Source of the DNA: Promethearchaeota archaeon
Lineage (GTDB): Archaea; Asgardarchaeota; Hermodarchaeia; Hermodarchaeales; Hermodarchaeaceae
Reading direction: 5' to 3'
Length of the DNA: 32,000 nt
Assembly (NCBI GenBank): GCA_048938295.1
Contig: JBHLMI010000005.1
Span: 60,001-92,000, forward strand
Positions 23,841 through 32,000 of the stretch are shown piece after piece. Within the stretch, counting starts at the first letter, position 1. Each line of letters starts with the position of its first letter. Below the pieces are notes generated by a model. The model made no database searches. It was not told the DNA's origin and worked only from the letters and a program-made list of their open reading frames with translations. Both the position numbers and the translations under genes were made by a program.

Positions 23841-25583
23841 CTATTCGGTGCGACCAACCCGGTTGGTCGCAGCCTTCCGGTGGAACTGAGAATTGTAGAG
23901 TTCTTGTACCCGGTGGATGGTGTCAGCTTCATTCGGATCTTTATCGTACCGTAGCCGTTTAATTCGTGCGAAGCGAAGCGCCATGCCGGACTTGTACGTA
24001 GGACTTTTTTGAATCTCATCATATTCAACTTCAACCACAATCCGTGGATGTACTTTGACAACTCCACCACGTTGTTCAATCTTAAGATCCAAGAGACGTT
24101 GGGTAATCTCCACAAATTCTGCATCTGTTAGTCCCTTGAAGGTTTTCCCAAGCATGTGAAACTCTCCAGTTTCAGGATCCTGCGCGGCAAGGTGATAATC
24201 ACTTAGCCATTTATGCCGTCGCCCAGTCCCCCATTCAGCTGCAATAATCACCAGGTCAAGGGTCTCCATACTTTGTTTAACCTTTAACCAAGCCTTTCCT
24301 CGTATACCTGGCTGATACCTACTGTCCAGACGTTTCGCAACTAGACCCTCATGGCCAGCCTCGATGGCTTTCTCAAAAAAGGATTGGGCTTTATTGGAAT
24401 CGGAGGTCACGAGTTGTTCTACCAATGGAATTGCCCCACTAACTTTCTCAAGGAGCTCCCGTCGGGATTGATACGGTGAATCGATGAGGACATTCCCTTC
24501 TTCCATTAACAGGTCAAACAAGTACAAGGTTACAGGGATCTCAGCAATCATTTCTTCAACTTTCCTAACTCGCCGGAACCGTCGCATTAGATGTTGAAAG
24601 GGATGTGGACGTCCATCTGGCCCCTCTGCAAGCACCTCTCCTTCAAGGATACAACTTTGCAAACTAACCTGATTGCCAACCAAATCTACTAGATCAGGAA
24701 GACTTGTCGTAACATCGGTCAATCGGCGACTGTAAATACGTATCTGTGTTTGGTGATTTTCTCGTTGTAGGTGAATCTGAACACGGGCGCCATCCAGCTT
24801 CATTTCAAAAGCTGATGTTCCATCATGGATTTTTAGGGCATCTTCGACATCTTCGGCTTGGGCAGCTAACATAGGAAGCAATGGAACGAACGCACAAAGC
24901 TTCACATTTTTCAATCCTTCAGAACCCTGATGGAAAGCTGTCCTTGCTACTTGACCAATATTTCCGGTAAGCATATTCGCGCGGCGAACCAGGTCCAGAG
25001 GTATATTCAGCTTTCGTGCAATGGCACTTTCTAGCATTCCAGCACTGAAACCTATCCGTTGATCCCCCACAAGCAGTTTTGTGATATACTTAGCTTCTAG
25101 CGGTTTAGCCCGCGTAAATAAGGCTCGGAGTAATGCGGTTTTTCGTTTTCGGGACCCTGAACCTTGTGCATCTGCGATTTCGGTAAAAGTAGAATGGACA
25201 TCTTGTATTGTCAAAGGCGTTGTAAACAATGTCGATTGTCGAATAGTTCCTGAGCGAAGATACAACTGGTATACAACTTCGCCAATATCCCCTGATTGTG
25301 CAAAGAGTTCATTTAACAATTGACGCGGGGGATGCAGAAGCTCCTGGAGAATCTGATTGAGTGCTTTCCAATCAAGAGCCAACGTCCGTTGGCTAGTCCG
25401 TGGAAAAGGACGACCAATAAGGAGTAAGGTCCCAATTTCAGTTTCCTCAACCGATAAATTCGCTAGGAACGTCCCAGCCATATCCATTTTCTCTAAACGA
25501 CTCGAGGTTCCCATAATAGCCTCAGAAACTTCTGCCAAGACCTGAAATGGAGTTGCTGGATTAGCAGCCGCCTTAGACATCAA
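23841..25583 (-). CDS. lig: ATP-dependent DNA ligase (archaeal LigI type)
   Basis: Motif I EMKLDGARVQIH, III ILEGEV, IIIa YLFDLL, IV EGLVAK, V WLKVK, VI LRFARIKRLRYDK. Confidence 0.95.
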   Translation of the reverse strand: MMSKAAANPATPFQVLAEVSEAIMGTSSRLEKMDMAGTFLANLSVEETEIGTLLLIGRPFPRTSQRTLALDWKALNQILQELLHPPRQLLNELFAQSGDIGEVVYQLYLRSGTIRQSTLFTTPLTIQDVHSTFTEIADAQGSGSRKRKTALLRALFTRAKPLEAKYITKLLVGDQRIGFSAGMLESAIARKLNIPLDLVRRANMLTGNIGQVARTAFHQGSEGLKNVKLCAFVPLLPMLAAQAEDVEDALKIHDGTSAFEMKLDGARVQIHLQRENHQTQIRIYSRRLTDVTTSLPDLVDLVGNQVSLQSCILEGEVLAEGPDGRPHPFQHLMRRFRRVRKVEEMIAEIPVTLYLFDLLMEEGNVLIDSPYQSRRELLEKVSGAIPLVEQLVTSDSNKAQSFFEKAIEAGHEGLVAKRLDSRYQPGIRGKAWLKVKQSMETLDLVIIAAEWGTGRRHKWLSDYHLAAQDPETGEFHMLGKTFKGLTDAEFVEITQRLLDLKIEQRGGVVKVHPRIVVEVEYDEIQKSPTYKSGMALRFARIKRLRYDKDPNEADTIHRVQELYNSQFHRKAATNRVGRTE

Positions 25584-25622
25584 GAGCCCCTTCTTTTCCT
25601 CAAAATCCTCCCCTCCTACAAC

Positions 25623-25630
25623 CTTAAAAA
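25623..25630. promoter_or_regulatory. Candidate TATA element in the divergent lig/ssb intergenic region
   Basis: CTTAAAAA on + and TTTTTAAG on -; about 40 nt from the lig start and about 50 nt from the ssb start. Confidence 0.3.
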
Positions 25631-25681
25631 GTGTGCTTCATTACATCCATGATAACTTCCAATTACGCAGGTTCTGAAAAA

Positions 25682-26020
25682 ATGAAAGTCCATGAATTAA
25701 CTTCTGCATCCCGAAGTGTCAACATCCGATTGCGTATCCTTTCCTTGGAGCCCGTTCGAGATGTGGAGACACGCTATGGTAAAGCCCGAGTGGCCACCGC
25801 ACAAGCGGGTGACGAAACCGGTACGATCAAGCTCTCATTGTGGAACGATGATATTGACATGATCGATGAAGGGGCCATTGTTGAAGTTGAAAACGGGTTC
25901 ATCAAAACGTTTCGCGGGGAAATGGAACTATCCGCAGGACGGTATGGAACCATCGCCCTAGTTGATGATCCAAAGTTTCCTTCACGGGAAGAAATTATGA
26001 GCAAACATCCTGGCGAATAG
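25682..26020 (+). CDS. ssb: Single-OB-fold single-stranded DNA-binding protein (crenarchaeal SSB / RPA-like)
   Basis: VNIRLRILSL...VATAQAGDETGTIKLSLWND...VEVENGFIKTFRGEMELSAGRYG. ATG 25682 is preferred. Confidence 0.88.
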   Translation: MKVHELTSASRSVNIRLRILSLEPVRDVETRYGKARVATAQAGDETGTIKLSLWNDDIDMIDEGAIVEVENGFIKTFRGEMELSAGRYGTIALVDDPKFPSREEIMSKHPGE

Positions 26021-26061
26021 TCCAACGCTTCAGGTCCAATAGTGTGTGAGGGAAGCTGTAA

Positions 26062-26898
26062 TTGATTATTGATCAATTCTTTGCTTGGTTACATGCTGTC
26101 GATGTATGGGTTGAAGGGCTCATGTGGCTCCTAATCTCATGGGTCCATACCTTAGGCCCTCTTGGCGTGTTTATCGGCGTAATGATTGAGACCTTTATCG
26201 CACCGATTCCTTCACCCCTTGTTCCAATGGCAGCAGGAGCCATCCTAACCATTGGGTTAGATCCGGTGCAGGCGCTTCTTGTCATCCTATTTAGCGTTAT
26301 GTTTGTTGGGGCCCTTGCAGCCACTATTGGATCGTTTTTTGCCTATGGCATCGCTTACTTTGGCGGTTATCCTATCATCGAACGATATGGCAAATATTTT
26401 GGTTCTTCAATCGAAGAAATTGAATATACACGACTGAGCTTGGAGAAGTCTTCACGAGATGAAATCTTCCTATTCACGGCCCGTGTAGTGCCAATTGTTC
26501 CCCTCTCAGTTGTTTCACTACTTTATGGAGCCATCCGATGGAATCCAAAACGCTATACACTCCTCACGTTCTTGGGTTGCTTACCACGGTATTTTGTTCT
26601 GGGTCTTTCGGGGTGGCTTTTAGGATTTGTCTTGCTAAGTATCATCGATTTCTTTGAAACGATTATTCTGGCATTTGTCCTCATCTTCTTTGTCGGCTTT
26701 GTGCTTTACCGAATAGTCATCCGCCGGCGCTCACAACAGATGCAGGCGTCAATGAAAAAGGAGGCACCAAAGACTGACGATTCAGCTAGCCTTCAGAGTG
26801 AGGATTACCAACAACTGCCGGTCGTAGCTCGAAGAAAAACATCACTTTACAGCCCTGGTTTTGGAGATCCGCTTGGAGAGCTGCCGCACGACCCTTAG
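26062..26898 (+). CDS. DedA / VTT-domain membrane protein
   Basis: GPLGVFIGVMIETFIAPIPS, GSFFAYGIAYFGG, FTARVVPIVP (FxxRxxP); several hydrophobic helices. Confidence 0.85.
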   Translation: MIIDQFFAWLHAVDVWVEGLMWLLISWVHTLGPLGVFIGVMIETFIAPIPSPLVPMAAGAILTIGLDPVQALLVILFSVMFVGALAATIGSFFAYGIAYFGGYPIIERYGKYFGSSIEEIEYTRLSLEKSSRDEIFLFTARVVPIVPLSVVSLLYGAIRWNPKRYTLLTFLGCLPRYFVLGLSGWLLGFVLLSIIDFFETIILAFVLIFFVGFVLYRIVIRRRSQQMQASMKKEAPKTDDSASLQSEDYQQLPVVARRKTSLYSPGFGDPLGELPHDP

Positions 26899-27070
26899 CG
26901 TCGTGAATGGAGTCATACAACGGTGAAACACAGATTGGTGTGGTCTCCCCTTCAGGAGTGATACATTTGAAATCCTCGGGAACCTTTGCGGGGGCAGGTA
27001 ACCGTGCGGAGACCCGGAACTTCCCATCGAGGATACTGAGCCAGATTTCAGGATACTTACACTCTGTCAT
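26786..27070 (-). CDS. Possible small hypothetical protein (94 aa)
   Basis: ATG 27070 (MTECKYPEIW...) fills the otherwise empty 255-nt dedA-rnhB gap, but overlaps the dedA 3' end by 113 nt. Confidence 0.35.
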   Translation of the reverse strand: MTECKYPEIWLSILDGKFRVSARLPAPAKVPEDFKCITPEGETTPICVSPLYDSIHDAKGRAAALQADLQNQGCKVMFFFELRPAVVGNPHSEG

Positions 27071-27153
27071 AGATGCCACACGCAAGTAAAGTAAGTAAGA
27101 ACTAATAAGCCTGAGTAATTGTTAATGGTTTCGGAGTAAAGAGAATAGCAGAT

Positions 27154-27822
27154 TTGGTGTTGGGATTGCCGCAACATATTGCAGGTGTCGACGATGCAGG
27201 TCGAGGCCCTGTTATTGGACCCTTAGTGATTGCCGGAGTAGAAATAACAACATCTCAGGAAGATGCACTTATTGAATGTGGAGTTCGGGATTCAAAGACA
27301 TTAAGTGCTCGTCGTCGTGAACTGCTAGCTCATCGAGTTCACAACCTCGCCAACAGAGTCGAGGTTCTCGAAATTAGTGCAAAACGAATTGATGCTGAAC
27401 GAAAAAAGAACCGCAGCTTGAACATCTTAGAGGCAGAATGGATGGCACAAGTATTGAACCGACTCAGGTGGGATGTTGCATATGTTGATGCTTCGGATGT
27501 GAACGCGGAACGTTATGGTCGGATCATTTCTTCGCAGTTAACCACGCCAAGAAAGATTGTCAGTGAACATAAAGCAGATTCAACATATCCAGTCGTTGCT
27601 GCCGCCTCAATCATCGCTAAAGTTCACCGCGATCAGCGGATTCGCGAATTCCACAAACAGTATGGTGACTTTGGGAGTGGCTATCCTAATGATCCTAAAA
27701 CGAGATACTTTCTAATCAATTGGATTCGAAACAATAGCGAGTTTCCTCATATCGTACGAAAATCGTGGAAAACGGCACAGGAAATTCATGCCGCAAATCG
27801 ACAGGAAACTCTTACTGATTGA
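27154..27822 (+). CDS. rnhB: Ribonuclease HII
   Basis: GVDDAGRGPVIGPLV, GVRDSK.L, YVDASD, HKADSTYPVVAAASIIAKV.RD, GSGYPND. Confidence 0.95.
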   Translation: MVLGLPQHIAGVDDAGRGPVIGPLVIAGVEITTSQEDALIECGVRDSKTLSARRRELLAHRVHNLANRVEVLEISAKRIDAERKKNRSLNILEAEWMAQVLNRLRWDVAYVDASDVNAERYGRIISSQLTTPRKIVSEHKADSTYPVVAAASIIAKVHRDQRIREFHKQYGDFGSGYPNDPKTRYFLINWIRNNSEFPHIVRKSWKTAQEIHAANRQETLTD

Positions 27823-27841: not shown

Positions 27842-29425
27842 TTAAGTAGCTTCCGTTTCTTCTTTCTTTTTCTTTTTCGCTTTCTTCTCTTCCTTCTTCC
27901 GTTTCTCTGCTTCCTTCCGCTGCTTCTCTTCCTCTTCCAAGCGCTTTTCCTCAGCCTTCCGCGTCTCTTCCTCTTCCTTCTTCTTCTGTTTCTCTGCTTC
28001 CTTCCGCTGCTTCTCTTCCTCTTTTAGACGCCTCTCCTCTTCCTTGCGTTTTTGCTCTTCTTCCTTCTTCTGTCGCTTCTCCTCTTCCTTCCGCTGCTTC
28101 TCTTCCTCTTCCAAGCGCTTTTCCTCAGCCTTCCGCGCCTTCTCCTCTTCCTTCTGGATGCGCTTCGCTTCTTTTTCATCAACTTCAAGTAACTCAGTGG
28201 TTTCTGGAGGTTCTGTCTCGGCAAGTTCAGGAGGTGGAGTCATTTCTGCTTCCATCTCGGGAAGTTCTTCTTCACCCTCTTCCTTCTTCCGTTTCTTGCG
28301 TTCCTTCATCTTCTCCCGCATACGCATATACGTCTCGCTGAGCAGCTCCAGATGCCGTTTCGCGATATCTGGATGAATGTCCTTGGCTTCTAAGCGTTCC
28401 TGAATGCGGAGCACCAAAAACTCAGGGAAAAAGGACTCAAAGTGCACATCAGCGGTTAACACAATCACTGGATCATCGTTGGCGGACACCTCAACAGTAT
28501 TCTCGCCCATCTTCGTAATCACTTGTATTTGCTCTAACCGACGCAACACGTTATCTAGCGATGCTTCCTTCTCAACGACACCAACCAGCTCGGATTTATG
28601 CGCGATTTTCCGTCGCAGGGTCTTGGTTACATCATAGATGTCAGGATCAAGCAGCAGCTGGCCAATCATAATCGTATCTTCTTCGGTCCACTGATACGCC
28701 TCGAAAAAGCGCTTCACTTGTTCCTCATATTCAGCATACTGTTGTTTGTTCAAACCACCACTCTTGGCCAATTTTAGCGATTGTTCAGGGGGAAACCGTG
28801 CCCCGAGTAAGTCATTGACCATAAAGACACAGTTATCAGATACCGCATTAATCCAATCCTCTTCCACTAGCCCACTACGCAATAAGGGCAACGTTACCAG
28901 ACCCAAGTCTGGATAGTGCTTCCCGGTCTGCAGCTCAAGCCACTCCCGTAGCTCTTCGGCCGAAATCCCACCCCGAGATAATTTGTGCATGAGCAACCGG
29001 GTTTCCTGATCTACGAAGACTTTGGCAAGCCGCTGCTCCACCGACAGCTCCACCATCCGCTTCAGCTTCTCAAATACTTCACCCAGATACTCCACAAACT
29101 CGGGCTCACCAATATTCTCTACAATCTCACTCGATGCAAGCGTCAACCCCTCCTCATATGCACGCGGCTCCTCATCCAGCTCCATAAACAACATGATACA
29201 GAACTGATCACGGCCACGAAGAATCCCAGTGTAAAAACTACTCACCGCCAGATTCGTTCCTTCAAGCGTCATCGTCAGAAACCCCGCCTCGGGTTTACCC
29301 ATCGCATGCGCAGTGAAGACCCGCAACATATCATCTTCAGAAACTTCAAGATTACGAGGATACACCCCGACGATACGAAGCCCGACCTTGTCGTCCCACC
29401 GACATATGCTTAGACCTTTTGGCAT
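27842..29425 (-). CDS. uDENN/longin-type N-terminal domain + wHTH-like domains + charged single-alpha-helix tail (527 aa)
   Basis: ATG 29425 with GGGAG SD. GLSICRWDDKVGLRIVGVYP resembles the first hairpin of uDENN/NPR2-type longins. ISAEELREWL...PLLRSGLV and SLDNVLRRLEQIQVI are wHTH-like. E/K/R-rich tail. Confidence 0.78.
   Translation of the reverse strand: MPKGLSICRWDDKVGLRIVGVYPRNLEVSEDDMLRVFTAHAMGKPEAGFLTMTLEGTNLAVSSFYTGILRGRDQFCIMLFMELDEEPRAYEEGLTLASSEIVENIGEPEFVEYLGEVFEKLKRMVELSVEQRLAKVFVDQETRLLMHKLSRGGISAEELREWLELQTGKHYPDLGLVTLPLLRSGLVEEDWINAVSDNCVFMVNDLLGARFPPEQSLKLAKSGGLNKQQYAEYEEQVKRFFEAYQWTEEDTIMIGQLLLDPDIYDVTKTLRRKIAHKSELVGVVEKEASLDNVLRRLEQIQVITKMGENTVEVSANDDPVIVLTADVHFESFFPEFLVLRIQERLEAKDIHPDIAKRHLELLSETYMRMREKMKERKKRKKEEGEEELPEMEAEMTPPPELAETEPPETTELLEVDEKEAKRIQKEEEKARKAEEKRLEEEEKQRKEEEKRQKKEEEQKRKEEERRLKEEEKQRKEAEKQKKKEEEETRKAEEKRLEEEEKQRKEAEKRKKEEKKAKKKKKEETEAT
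27875..28135 (-). repeat. Intragenic tandem repeat, 3 x 87 bp (29 aa)
   Basis: An exact 53-bp duplicate at 27911-27963 and 28085-28137 (offset 174), and an exact 36-bp duplicate at 27901-27936 and 27988-28023 (offset 87). Confidence 0.9.
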
Positions 29426-29610: not shown

Positions 29611-30480
29611 CTAGTCTGTGGTCGCTTCTGCCACTGCACCGAGGATGATTTTATAGAGGATTTCGCGGTATCGGGGATCGATGGCGACGAGTCCGTAAGC
29701 TTGCACGCCGAGGATGCGTTGGACGAGTTTGGGTGCGAGGGCGCCGGGGAGGTCTTGTTTGTTGGCGATGGCCCAGACGATGGAGGAGGGGGAGTTTTTG
29801 CGGACAACTTCGAGGATGTCGCGGGTTTCGAGGACGTTTTTGAGGGTGGAGTCAGTGACGAGTAAGACGGCGTCGGCGTTGCGGAGGTAGTAGTTCCAGA
29901 GGGAGCGGAAGCGATCTTGGCCAGCGAAGTCCCAGACGGCGAGTTCGTAGGGACCGAAGCGGACGCCTTGGAGAGTTTCGATGTCGACGGCGATGGTGGG
30001 ATAGTAGTCGCCGGGAATGCTTTCGGCGGTGAGGAGTTTGAGCATGGTTGATTTGCCGACCCCGCCTTGGCCGAGGAGGCAGATTTTGAGCATGGTGACG
30101 ATGACGTTATCAAGTTCGGCGCCAAAGCCTTTGAAGGCTTCGCCGAGGGGGACGGGGGTTTGGATGTAGGCGTCGATTTCGTGGCCGAATTTGGTAAGGA
30201 GGAGTTCCTGGGTTTTTTTAAGTGTGCCTTTGATTTTTTCGTCTTCGTCGTTCATGTCGACGGCGAAAACGAGGAGGAGGTGAGTGCCGGCTTCTTTGTA
30301 GATGAATTTAATGTTTTTGACGTGAATGGGCAGATCGACTTGGCTACCGAGTTCGGATTCGAAGTGTTTGTAGGTGGCAAGAAATTCTTGTCGTTCTTCA
30401 GAGGAGATTTCCACTGACCAGTATTGGCGGTGGAAAGCAAGGCGGCCATCTCGGGTCATGATGAAGACGTTGTGAATCAT
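29611..30480 (-). CDS. Longin domain + Arf-like small GTPase fusion (289 aa)
   Basis: ATG 30480 with AGGAG SD. Longin MIHNVFIMTRDGRLAFHRQYW...IKFIYKEAGTHLLLVFAVD. G1 GQGGVGKS, G2 YYPTI, G3 WDFAGQDRFRSLWNYY, G4 ANKQDLPGA (the last two are Arf-like). Confidence 0.9.
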   Translation of the reverse strand: MIHNVFIMTRDGRLAFHRQYWSVEISSEERQEFLATYKHFESELGSQVDLPIHVKNIKFIYKEAGTHLLLVFAVDMNDEDEKIKGTLKKTQELLLTKFGHEIDAYIQTPVPLGEAFKGFGAELDNVIVTMLKICLLGQGGVGKSTMLKLLTAESIPGDYYPTIAVDIETLQGVRFGPYELAVWDFAGQDRFRSLWNYYLRNADAVLLVTDSTLKNVLETRDILEVVRKNSPSSIVWAIANKQDLPGALAPKLVQRILGVQAYGLVAIDPRYREILYKIILGAVAEATTD

Positions 30481-30502: not shown

Positions 30503-31522
30503 TTATTCGGCGCGGGTAATGGCTTTTTCTTGAGGTGTAGCGCGTCGCTGTCGTTGTTTGTAATGGGGGAGCTTTTTTTCATCCGAACTCAGGAGGTTAC
30601 GGAGCTCCCGATAATTGCGACGCAGTGAGGTACGTGAACAACCCACGAGTTCGATTATATCGTTTTCGGGTATTGAATCCCCGGTTTGTTTTGCGCTATA
30701 GTAAGCAATGGAAGCAGCAATGATTGGGCGTGGATGCCCTTGGAAGAGACCTTCTTGTCCGACATATTCAACGATGTTGTGAGCGTATTCCTCAGTTTCC
30801 GGTTCTATCTCCAAAATTGCGAACAGGCGATCGAGTATAGCATGGACTGGCTCAGCCCAGGCGCCAGATTTGGTGTCTTTAAACTTTTGTCGTTCTTGAT
30901 CGTAGTCTTCAAGGATGCGTTGGATTCCGGCACGGACCAACTGGCGAGCGTTGGCAAGTTGGTTTTGGCGTTGGCGTCGAATATAACGGGGGCATTGGGG
31001 GTATCCGGGCATGTCATAGATGGTTAAATAGCATTGTTTCTTAACCACACGGCAAAAAGACGTCATTTTATCAGTTTTTATGGGTCGCTCATAGACGTAG
31101 GGGCATAGTGATTGGTCACGTGACCCACCCCTACGTTCAATTTTTCTGTAGCTATCCGAAAGAATCTGCCGATACCGCCGTTTTCTGTTTGTAGGGTTCC
31201 CGCTTGTTTTTGTTATTCGCTGCAGTGTCTTGAGGAGAATCTCCTCATAAGGGGAGCCCTCTTCTTCAGCTGTAAGCAGTACGAAGAGACAGATATCGTC
31301 TTCAGCACCATCTCGCATGAAACGCGTGCATACAACTGCTGCACGTTCCTTAACGTCTTTGGTAGGAAAAATTTGAAATGTGGTTCCTAGGTCCTGAGGG
31401 GCACTGCCATAATACATCATCGACATGTCGGTGACCTCAAATTCCAATGAACCAGGATACTTGGATAGTATCTTTAGTCCTTCTTTGGTATCCCATTGAC
31501 TAACGACGAGGCCCCGAGGGAT
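30503..31522 (-). CDS. uDENN/longin-type domain + Cys4 finger + single TFIIB-type cyclin repeat (339 aa; probable ATC start)
   Basis: The frame is open 25 codons upstream of the track's TTG 31447, giving IPRGLVVSQWDTKEGLKILSKYP, which is homologous to the start of the 29425 gene. Cys spacing is C-x16-C-x6-C-x12-C. LDRLFAILEI...AHNIV...GLFQG..RPIIAASIAY...ENDIIELVGCSRTSLRRNYREL matches a TFB cyclin repeat. Confidence 0.8.
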   Translation of the reverse strand: MPRGLVVSQWDTKEGLKILSKYPGSLEFEVTDMSMMYYGSAPQDLGTTFQIFPTKDVKERAAVVCTRFMRDGAEDDICLFVLLTAEEEGSPYEEILLKTLQRITKTSGNPTNRKRRYRQILSDSYRKIERRGGSRDQSLCPYVYERPIKTDKMTSFCRVVKKQCYLTIYDMPGYPQCPRYIRRQRQNQLANARQLVRAGIQRILEDYDQERQKFKDTKSGAWAEPVHAILDRLFAILEIEPETEEYAHNIVEYVGQEGLFQGHPRPIIAASIAYYSAKQTGDSIPENDIIELVGCSRTSLRRNYRELRNLLSSDEKKLPHYKQRQRRATPQEKAITRAE

Positions 31523-31672
31523 GATGAGTCACCTTCCATGCAGACAGAGCTATAGTTTACGAAGTTGTTACTTGGCTTAAGTCAAAGTTTGGAAACGCCA
31601 CAGAAAAAGGTTTTTGCACATCGGAAGGTACCCTCAATTCATTCCGAGATACTGAAACCACCATAAAACACG

Positions 31673-32000
31673 CTAATGGGTTCTAAGCCTCCAAAGTAGA
31701 AGTACAATAACGACAGAAATACCCAGAATCGTAAATCCCAACATGAAAGGAAATAGCTGGTCCCATCTCGATGTAGGAAGACTAACTGAATTACCAATTA
31801 TTGCCGGGTAGATGAACTCATCGAAATATGCATAGTATTCTTCTGAGCTATAGGGGGCGGCACCAAAGGCAAGAACAAGATCCTCTTGGGGAAGTACAAA
31901 AACACGCATACCGCCTGCGCCTCTCATTGAATAACCGGAGATGGGAAGATCAATCCACCACTGATAGCCATACCCTTCCCCATACGTAAAGACAAAGTGA
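31673..32000 (-). CDS. 3' fragment of a serine hydrolase (beta-lactamase-related family) with a C-terminal TM anchor
   Basis: The frame is open to the window edge: ...GYGYQWWIDLPISGYSMRGAGGMRVFVLPQEDLVL..., then a hydrophobic tail FPFMLGFTILGISVVIVLLLW followed by RLRTH. Confidence 0.7.
   Translation of the reverse strand, partial: HFVFTYGEGYGYQWWIDLPISGYSMRGAGGMRVFVLPQEDLVLAFGAAPYSSEEYYAYFDEFIYPAIIGNSVSLPTSRWDQLFPFMLGFTILGISVVIVLLLWRLRTH

Follow-up and report, generated by a model that had tools for sequence, protein, structure and literature searches.

In the archaeal transcription factor TFB, the second cyclin fold recognizes the B-recognition element (BRE), while RNA polymerase (RNAP) is recruited by the zinc ribbon (PMC7289017). 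Members of the Sulfolobales possess TFB3, a truncated TFB paralogue that acts as an activator (PMC6101594). Among longin-domain proteins, the residues W33-D34...G38 of C9orf72 are essential for the Arf GTPase-activating protein (GAP) activity of C9orf72-SMCR8 (PMC12290439), and NPRL2-like longins of Asgard archaea have been found fused to two-component-system domains (Liu et al., bioRxiv 10.1101/2020.10.19.343400). Small GTPases and longin/roadblock proteins are plentiful in Asgard archaea, but the genome almost never allows one to predict what they interact with and which output they serve; in MK-D1, the GTPase genes are generally not located in operons with longin or roadblock-type regulators (PMC10933270). 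Here, we analyzed a 32,000-nt stretch of the genome of a Promethearchaeota archaeon (GCA_048938295.1, contig JBHLMI010000005.1, positions 60,001 to 92,000; hereafter, the window), in which gene A (30503..31522, minus strand; 339 aa plus stop) combines a longin domain, a four-cysteine (Cys4) module, an Arg-rich helix and a single TFB repeat in one protein. No description of a longin-TFB repeat fusion was found in the literature searched. The locus stands out as a conserved operon with one Arf-like GTPase (gene B) and two NPRL2/C9orf72-like longin proteins (genes A and C), one of them with the TFB domain.

Residues of the gene A protein are numbered by P0001, which is the whole gene A frame read through (340 aa). 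Its homologues form 42 clusters, the family alignment consists of 30 homologues with identities of 48-88%, and the AlphaFold2 (AF2) model, built on 30 homologues, has a mean predicted local distance difference test score (pLDDT) of 77. In this model, a single cyclin-fold repeat of five helices (residues 224-314; 30584..30856, minus strand) is predicted with pLDDT of 84-91. Fold comparison by VIA matched this repeat to human TFIIB (5iy6_M; Z of 13.6, 2.2 Å over 101 residues) and to P. woesei TFB (1ais_B; Z of 13.3, root-mean-square deviation of 1.4 Å over 90 residues), with cyclins, Rb and ORC6 among the lower-ranked matches. The PDB sequence matches of gene A were TFB and TFIIB alone, and the NCBIfam TFIIB model was matched at its positions 225-306 of 312. 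The Pfam TFIIB model (PF00382) scored 15.6 bits with the gene A protein of the window (E of 0.016), below its cut-off of 23.6 bits, and was matched by 23 of the 30 family members at E<=0.1 (best E of 4.7e-6). When the family profile was searched with hmmsearch against 12,309 open frames of the genome, four TFBs alone were found, in which repeat 2 scored 17-21 bits vs. 1-6 bits for repeat 1. Similarly, all 30 members preferred the hidden Markov model (HMM) of TFB repeat 2 (8-31 bits) over that of repeat 1 (-3 to 14 bits), and the TFBs of other Asgard families were matched in repeat 2 at 25-29 bits. Alignment of residues 130-340 with the genome's own seven TFBs by HHalign gave a probability of 93% (E of 2.7e-7) for repeat 2 and 83% (E of 8.6e-6) for repeat 1, both of which mapped to the same single region. 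These profile comparisons show that the predicted repeat of gene A derives from the second, BRE-reading repeat of TFB.

The helix-turn-helix (HTH) of the repeat (residues 287-308, ENDIIELVGCSRTSLRRNYREL; 30602..30667, minus strand) is colinear with the TFB HTH ...VTEVTVRNRYKEL, and the HTH of other Asgard TFBs, DIANLVGVTEVTLRSRYKEL, is visibly the template of DIIELVGCSRTSLRRNYREL. With 14 of 22 positions invariant, it is the most conserved stretch of the gene A protein. The invariant residues include R302, which is aligned with the Arg of the TFB recognition helix, as well as T299, R303 and N304. The mean pairwise identity among the segments of gene A varies from 26% in the tail and 52% in the longin domain to 66% in the cyclin repeat, 69% in the Cys4 module, 73% in the Arg-rich helix and 93% in the HTH. 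The strongest constraint in gene A thus falls exactly on the segment that serves as the BRE reader of TFB, which belongs to the putative nucleic-acid-binding half of the protein. The repeat is followed by a basic C-terminal tail (30506..30583, minus strand; charge of +4) that is poorly conserved and disordered (pLDDT of about 40) and that ends in a recurrent R-A-E in many members.

No other part of TFB was aligned to residues 130-340 by HHalign, leaving the zinc ribbon, B-reader and B-linker unmatched, and neither a CxxC pair nor a Pfam zinc-ribbon hit was found in gene A. A second cyclin repeat was not detected either, AF2 showing one five-helix repeat at 224-314. The space that matches the B-reader and B-linker of TFB holds one long Arg-rich helix in the AF2 model (residues 179-214; 30884..30991, minus strand; pLDDT of 72-87). 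Its 36 residues carry a net charge of +5, and 14 of the 36 positions are invariant, with the arginines nearly so. Because it is without the zinc ribbon, B-reader, B-linker and first repeat, and so without every RNAP-recruiting part of TFB, the predicted gene A protein is one that cannot serve as a general initiation factor. The near-invariant HTH fits a putative DNA-reading role without RNAP recruitment.

The original prediction, made from the nucleotide sequence, had read 30503-31522 as a fusion of a longin domain, a Cys4 finger and a lone TFB C-terminal repeat, and all the elements that it listed were found where it had placed them, an agreement well outside what chance would give. The cyclin fold that it had assigned to the C-terminal domain (~225-315) was borne out by fold comparison (VIA Z of 13.3-13.6) and by HHalign (repeat 2 at 93%), which agrees with AF2 that a zinc ribbon, a B-reader and a second repeat are missing. 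The motif C-x16-C-x6-C-x12-C is exact, the basic stretch NRKRRYRQ is present and lies within the last helix of the longin domain in the AF2 model, and the end coordinate 31522 coincides with the conserved ATC start codon described below.

The N-terminal longin domain (residues 2-131 of P0001; 31133..31522, minus strand) was recognized from the AF2 model (pLDDT of 75-89), VIA and Foldseek. Residues 1-131 fold as beta-beta-alpha-beta-beta-beta-alpha-alpha in the model and are followed by a disordered Gly/Arg linker. By VIA, the domain matched the Lokiarchaeal Roadblock-Longin 8yqg_B (Z of 13.5), NPRL2 of GATOR1 (8fw5_B; Z of 13.0, 134 residues), yeast Npr2 (8adl_S; Z of 11.3), FLCN (6nzd_H; Z of 10.4) and Lst4 (Z of 10.2). 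The top ranks of Foldseek were GATOR1, SEA, FLCN-FNIP2 and DENND1A, and the shape search of the ESM Atlas returned NPRL2 in its top row, with SMCR8 and C9orf72 also among the matches. These model-based comparisons show that the predicted N-terminus of gene A is a longin of the NPRL2/FLCN/C9orf72 type, on which eukaryotes build platforms for the regulation of GTPases. Between strands 1 and 2, gene A carries W11-D12-x3-G16-L17, of which W11-D12-x3-G16 is invariant in a comparison of 15 loci (that of the window, those of eleven further genomes from its GTDB family, and three from more distant lineages that were found by identity look-up). The longin of gene C carries the same W-D-x3-G-L between its strands 1 and 2, and the spacing of W-D-x3-G in both proteins is that of W33-D34...G38-P39 in C9orf72. 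In the loop between strands 4 and 5, R68 of gene A is nearly invariant and R/K71 is common, and R70 of gene C is invariant; these basic residues are possible counterparts of the known arginine fingers, R78 of NPRL2 and R147 of SMCR8.

Gene B (29611..30480, minus strand; 289 aa) begins 22 nt after gene A and encodes an N-terminal AP-sigma-like longin joined to an Arf-like small GTPase, with Pfam matches to Roc, Arf, Ras and Clat_adaptor_s. Among solved structures, it is most closely related to Arf1 and Arf2 (E of about 1e-19). The start of gene B at ATG 30480 (MIHNVF...) was set by 15 homologues, which led us to reject ATG 30582, the start of the longest open reading frame (ORF), with an 80-nt overlap with gene A. 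Gene C (27842..29425, minus strand; 527 aa) follows about 185 nt after gene B and consists of the WD-x3-GL longin, a conserved helical region and a Glu/Lys-rich tail. Its longin is paralogous to that of gene A (BLASTP E of 5e-11), and the helical region that comes next is highly conserved in the alignment. The Glu/Lys-rich tail (27842-28250), which resembles a repeat expansion of an EEKxRKxEE unit, is absent in one genus and reaches up to about 150 aa elsewhere. All 15 loci have the order A-B-C, even in lineages with identities of 50-55%, in which genes A and B overlap by 4 nt instead of being separated by the 22-nt gap. Prediction of a complex of the gene C longin and gene B, with gene A as a partner, gave a score of 0.01, which speaks neither for nor against binding. 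As read from the genome, the architecture of gene A, together with its GTPase operon, suggests that a GTPase switch may be connected directly to transcription.

We tentatively propose, with a confidence that falls somewhat short of even, that gene A encodes a GTPase-linked regulator whose TFB-derived HTH and Arg-rich helix would bind DNA without recruiting RNAP. The longin of gene A would dock to GTPase B, probably while paired with the longin of gene C in the manner of NPRL2-NPRL3 or C9orf72-SMCR8, and the nucleotide state of GTPase B would thereby be coupled to the C-terminal half of the gene A protein. This half would bind DNA via its TFB-type HTH, aided by the Arg-rich helix, and the four cysteines would hold a metal, which may be Zn in a structural role or an Fe-S cluster, the latter with the potential for redox sensing. 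The gene A protein would then be a switch-controlled transcription regulator, and, being unable to recruit RNAP, it would in the simplest case repress or compete at promoter sequences that resemble the BRE. The original prediction had suggested a signal-controlled TFB mimic, and its signal-controlled part gains support from the conserved operon, which also encodes the longin-Arf-like GTPase and a second, paralogous longin protein. It had also held that the C-terminal repeat of TFB contacts both TBP and the BRE, of which the contact with the BRE stands, as noted at the outset. In crystal structures of TBP-TFB-DNA, however, it is mainly the first TFB repeat that contacts the stirrup of TBP. Since this repeat is missing from gene A, TBP sequestration is the weaker half of what had been proposed.

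Several points weigh against the proposal that gene A is a GTPase-linked, DNA-binding regulator. A single TFB repeat is not known to bind DNA with much affinity unless TBP has bent it, and the cyclin fold very often serves to bind other proteins. The cyclin domain of the window sequence is acidic overall, with a net charge of -6. No regulon or repeated operator was found, the conserved blocks upstream of gene A being single-copy in the genome. On the longin side, the GP motif that precedes strand 2 in GAP longins (PMC12290439) reads G-L in genes A and C, as the invariant Gly is followed by Leu at all 15 loci, and an arginine finger could not be placed. The genes downstream, which encode RNase HII, a small ORF, a VTT-domain protein, an OB-fold protein resembling single-stranded DNA-binding protein and an ATP-dependent DNA ligase (23841-27822 in the window), have an order that is common to all lineages with the module (L015, L017 and L018 included). 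Because this wider gene order is also kept, part of the A-B-C synteny reflects relatedness rather than selection. Moreover, a gene C homologue occurs in another Asgard family without a GTPase neighbor (L067 4814-5971, G314:C21; 385 aa). It has the same W-D-x3-G longin and helical region, is without the Glu/Lys tail and has no gene A nearby. Since gene C homologues are thus found in other Asgard families without gene A, the family of gene C is older and wider than the gene A fusion.

Some of these points are shared by a different explanation, in which gene A is a pure subunit of a GTPase regulator. The longins of A and C would form a heterodimer that serves gene B as a GAP, a guanine-nucleotide exchange factor or a scaffold, and the Cys4-helix-cyclin half would merely stand in for the DENN domain or the C-terminal domain of NPRL2, with a role in structure or in the binding of proteins but not of DNA. 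The original prediction had likewise named a cyclin-box protein-interaction module as an alternative. This explanation, which we regard as the main rival although on the unlikely side, is favored by the best structural matches of the N-domain, which are the catalytic longins of GATOR1/SEA, of FLCN and of the C9orf72-SMCR8 family, and by the W-D-x3-G in both A and C beside an Arf-like GTPase in the same operon. The net acidic cyclin domain is consistent with it as well, as are the protein-binding habit of cyclin folds and the cyclins, Rb and ORC6 among the fold matches. A scaffold, however, would not need the repeat to be specifically TFB repeat 2, with the HTH conserved above all other segments at 93%, nor an adjoining Arg-rich helix with nearly invariant arginines.

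For the GTPase-linked regulator, a more specific version can be formulated, which we consider unlikely in its full form: the A-C longin pair would read or set the nucleotide state of B, and A would occupy BRE-like DNA in competition with the seven TFB paralogues of the genome. If this were true, an Arf/Rag-like GTPase switch would be wired directly to the basal promoter code in Hermodarchaeota, and a single archaeal protein would be the counterpart of the eukaryotic logic that leads from a longin GAP to a transcription factor, such as from FLCN/Rag to TFEB. An Fe-S or Zn checkpoint in the Cys4 module would give a second input. It should be noted that six canonical TFBs of this 2.5-Mb metagenome-assembled genome (MAG) are encoded on contigs C33, C39, C53, C61 and C65, with two of them adjacent on C33, and that the seventh, divergent TFB is encoded on contig C7, so that a genome of small size has a large choice of BRE readers. 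A stand-alone ORF for a single TFB second repeat is also found in the same genome, 6.6 kb past the end of the window (G000:C38:98599-98991, minus strand). It encodes about 100-130 aa, matches Pfam TFIIB at 49.6 bits and is without longin or Cys4.

The Cys4 module (C141-x16-C158-x6-C165-x12-C178; 30992..31105, minus strand) is predicted by AF2 to form a beta-hairpin and a short helix. Its four cysteines, two of which are in Cys-Pro pairs, are invariant across the 30 homologues. A profile of residues 130-220 that was searched against 1.84 billion representative proteins returned the family's own members and no outside relative of the Cys4 module; its other hits were one truncated fragment from the family and a repeat-HTH protein that is unrelated and matched the Arg-rich helix. 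No Pfam match to the module was above cut-off, and a hit to Rab15_effector in this region (15.8 bits vs. a cut-off of 27; one of the 30 members) was judged to be spurious. The feature search of the ESM Atlas gave no usable hit for the module, and when folded alone (pLDDT of 66) it matched no known fold, its best matches being to long helices at a Z of 3.8 at most. A degenerate TFB zinc ribbon, which the CP start and the C1-C3 spacing resemble by eye, was also considered and was rejected, as HHalign gave no alignment to the ribbon. The module is an orphan that probably binds metal (Zn or Fe-S).

Given these features, gene A could also be a stand-alone metal or redox sensor, in which Fe-S or Zn in the Cys4 module would control the binding of DNA or RNA by the HTH and the Arg-rich helix, the longin would merely dimerize gene A and the neighboring GTPase would be functionally unrelated. 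The invariant cysteines with their Cys-Pro pairs and the position of this orphan module between the longin and the nucleic-acid-binding-like half are consistent with such a sensor, as is the Lokiarchaeal longin domain of 8yqg, which, by the title of that entry, was crystallized as a dimer. The tight coupling of A and B (22-nt gap or 4-nt overlap), which is seen at all 15 loci despite a sequence divergence of about 50%, argues against it, and we consider this explanation very unlikely. Least probable of all, and hardly to be expected, is an anti-initiation factor that would act through protein contacts, its lone repeat sequestering TBP, a TFB paralogue or RNAP: the domain is derived from TFB and the genome has seven TFB paralogues to discriminate among, but gene A has neither the first repeat, which is the main contact to the TBP stirrup, nor the RNAP-contacting ribbon, reader and linker.

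Gene callers truncate gene A. Its stop-to-stop frame on the minus strand (30503-31528) is bounded by TGA 31529-31531 and by the stop codon 30503-30505, and ORF callers begin the gene at TTG 31447 (314 aa), because the frame has no ATG, GTG or TTG 5' of this codon. The sequence of the first beta-strand, I-P-R-G-L-V-x-S-x-W-D-x-K-x-G-L, is nevertheless kept at the protein level with synonymous codon changes in the 15 loci. The conservation of the protein begins exactly at ATC 31520..31522 (minus strand), directly before the Pro codon of IPRGL, and the two preceding codons are free to vary. Directly ahead of Pro, each of the 15 loci has either ATC or ATT, and no ATG, GTG or TTG is found around the start in 14 of them; in one relative, an ATG stands two codons 5' of the ATC/ATT position, and one database homologue begins with MVISIPRGL. 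A strong Shine-Dalgarno-like site, GGAAGGTGA (31529..31537, minus strand), lies 6 nt 5' of the ATC. Its core AAGGTG is invariant in the 15 loci within the full pattern GRAAGGTG(A/T), and the TGA within GGAAGGTGA ends the upstream frame in the window genome, while the last base is T in some relatives, which leaves their frame open. Contigs from four sequencing runs span 31488-31700 with zero indels. A frameshift with a start at the out-of-frame ATG 31538 was rejected, as this ATG is not conserved in relatives and no indel is present in the contigs of the four runs. The conserved strand, the freely varying preceding codons, the conserved Shine-Dalgarno-like spacing and the lack of indels show, by comparison of the loci, that the predicted gene A starts at a conserved AUY codon (Y, C or U) and has the coordinates 30503-31522. 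Such a conserved AUC/AUU start would hold the gene A protein at a low level. Because of the conserved ATC/ATT start, the public calls of gene A homologues, which use various internal Met starts, give lengths of 284-333 aa and lose the first longin strands, are too short.

Further upstream, three conserved blocks were found together within 31571-31656 (minus strand). The block CAAAAACCTTTTTCTG (31601..31616, minus strand; ~80 nt before the gene A start) is A-rich and then T-rich, and it is near-identical in 14 of 15 loci though its flanks have diverged. From its composition and position, CAAAAACCTTTTTCTG can be inferred to be a plausible BRE/TATA promoter of gene A. The block TTCAGTATCTCGGAATGAA (31638..31656, minus strand), which lies upstream of CAAAAACCTTTTTCTG, is a candidate regulator site, and its core GTATCTCGGAA is conserved in same-family loci and recognizable in L015 and L017. 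The third block in the 15-locus comparison is TTGACTTAAGCCAAG. No second copy of TTCAGTATCTCGGAATGAA, CAAAAACCTTTTTCTG or TTGACTTAAGCCAAG was found in the genome at 0-1 mismatch. In the Rfam search of the gene A leader, no block was matched, the sole hit being to a snoRNA at chance level (E of 0.16), and a scan for sigma-70 promoters and terminators, which is not relevant to an archaeon, gave background levels. The conserved blocks may represent a promoter plus an operator, or a structured leader.

Within the GTDB family of the window, all 18 other genomes sampled, which comprise two genera, carry full-length gene A, and no full-length copy was found among the 381 genomes sampled from 32 other Asgard families. 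The distant matches in other Asgard families were ordinary TFBs or gene-C-like longin proteins and were rejected as instances of the fusion. Most records of the family are titled Hermodarchaeota, including Ca. Hermodarchaeum yapensis, while some same-family MAGs carry the submitter labels Thor-, Odin- or Promethearchaeota. A few members are named cyclin family protein by NCBI.

The locus shows a lone TFB repeat reused outside the general factor, an orphan Cys4 module and an AUY start that truncates annotation. It also offers a clonable system for two questions, namely whether Asgard longins of the GAP type regulate GTPases and whether such a switch can address transcription directly. A GTPase switch that leads to transcription would be a possible precursor of the nutrient-signalling logic of eukaryotes.

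Compared with the known systems, gene A shares with NPRL2, FLCN and C9orf72-SMCR8 the N-terminal longin fold, and it lies beside a gene for a paralogous longin and a gene for an Arf-like GTPase. In contrast to these proteins, its C-terminal half consists of the Cys4 module, the helix and the TFB repeat, not of a DENN or NPRL2-specific domain. As in C9orf72, a W-D pair stands four residues before a Gly, but the Pro of the GP motif is Leu in gene A. The output of gene A, a TFB repeat, also differs from those of the Asgard longin fusions reported by Liu et al. (10.1101/2020.10.19.343400), in the text of which the words TFIIB and cyclin are absent. With archaeal TFB and eukaryotic TFIIB, gene A has the signatures G-x-x-G-x-P...AA-x-I-Y and T-x-R-x-x-Y-x-E-L in colinear order. 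Unlike them, it is fused to a longin and is without the zinc ribbon, B-reader, B-linker and first repeat, and its recognition helix reads CSRTSLRRN, whereas that of TFB reads VTEVTVRNR. Because the residues of the recognition helix differ, the DNA specificity of gene A, if any, probably differs from that of TFB. Sulfolobales TFB3 is similar to gene A in being derived from TFB, in keeping a part of it and in having the role of a regulator, which is proposed for gene A, rather than of a basal factor. TFB3 retains the N-terminal, RNAP-binding part and is without the DNA-binding core. Gene A is the mirror image of TFB3, in that the DNA-reading repeat alone has been retained.

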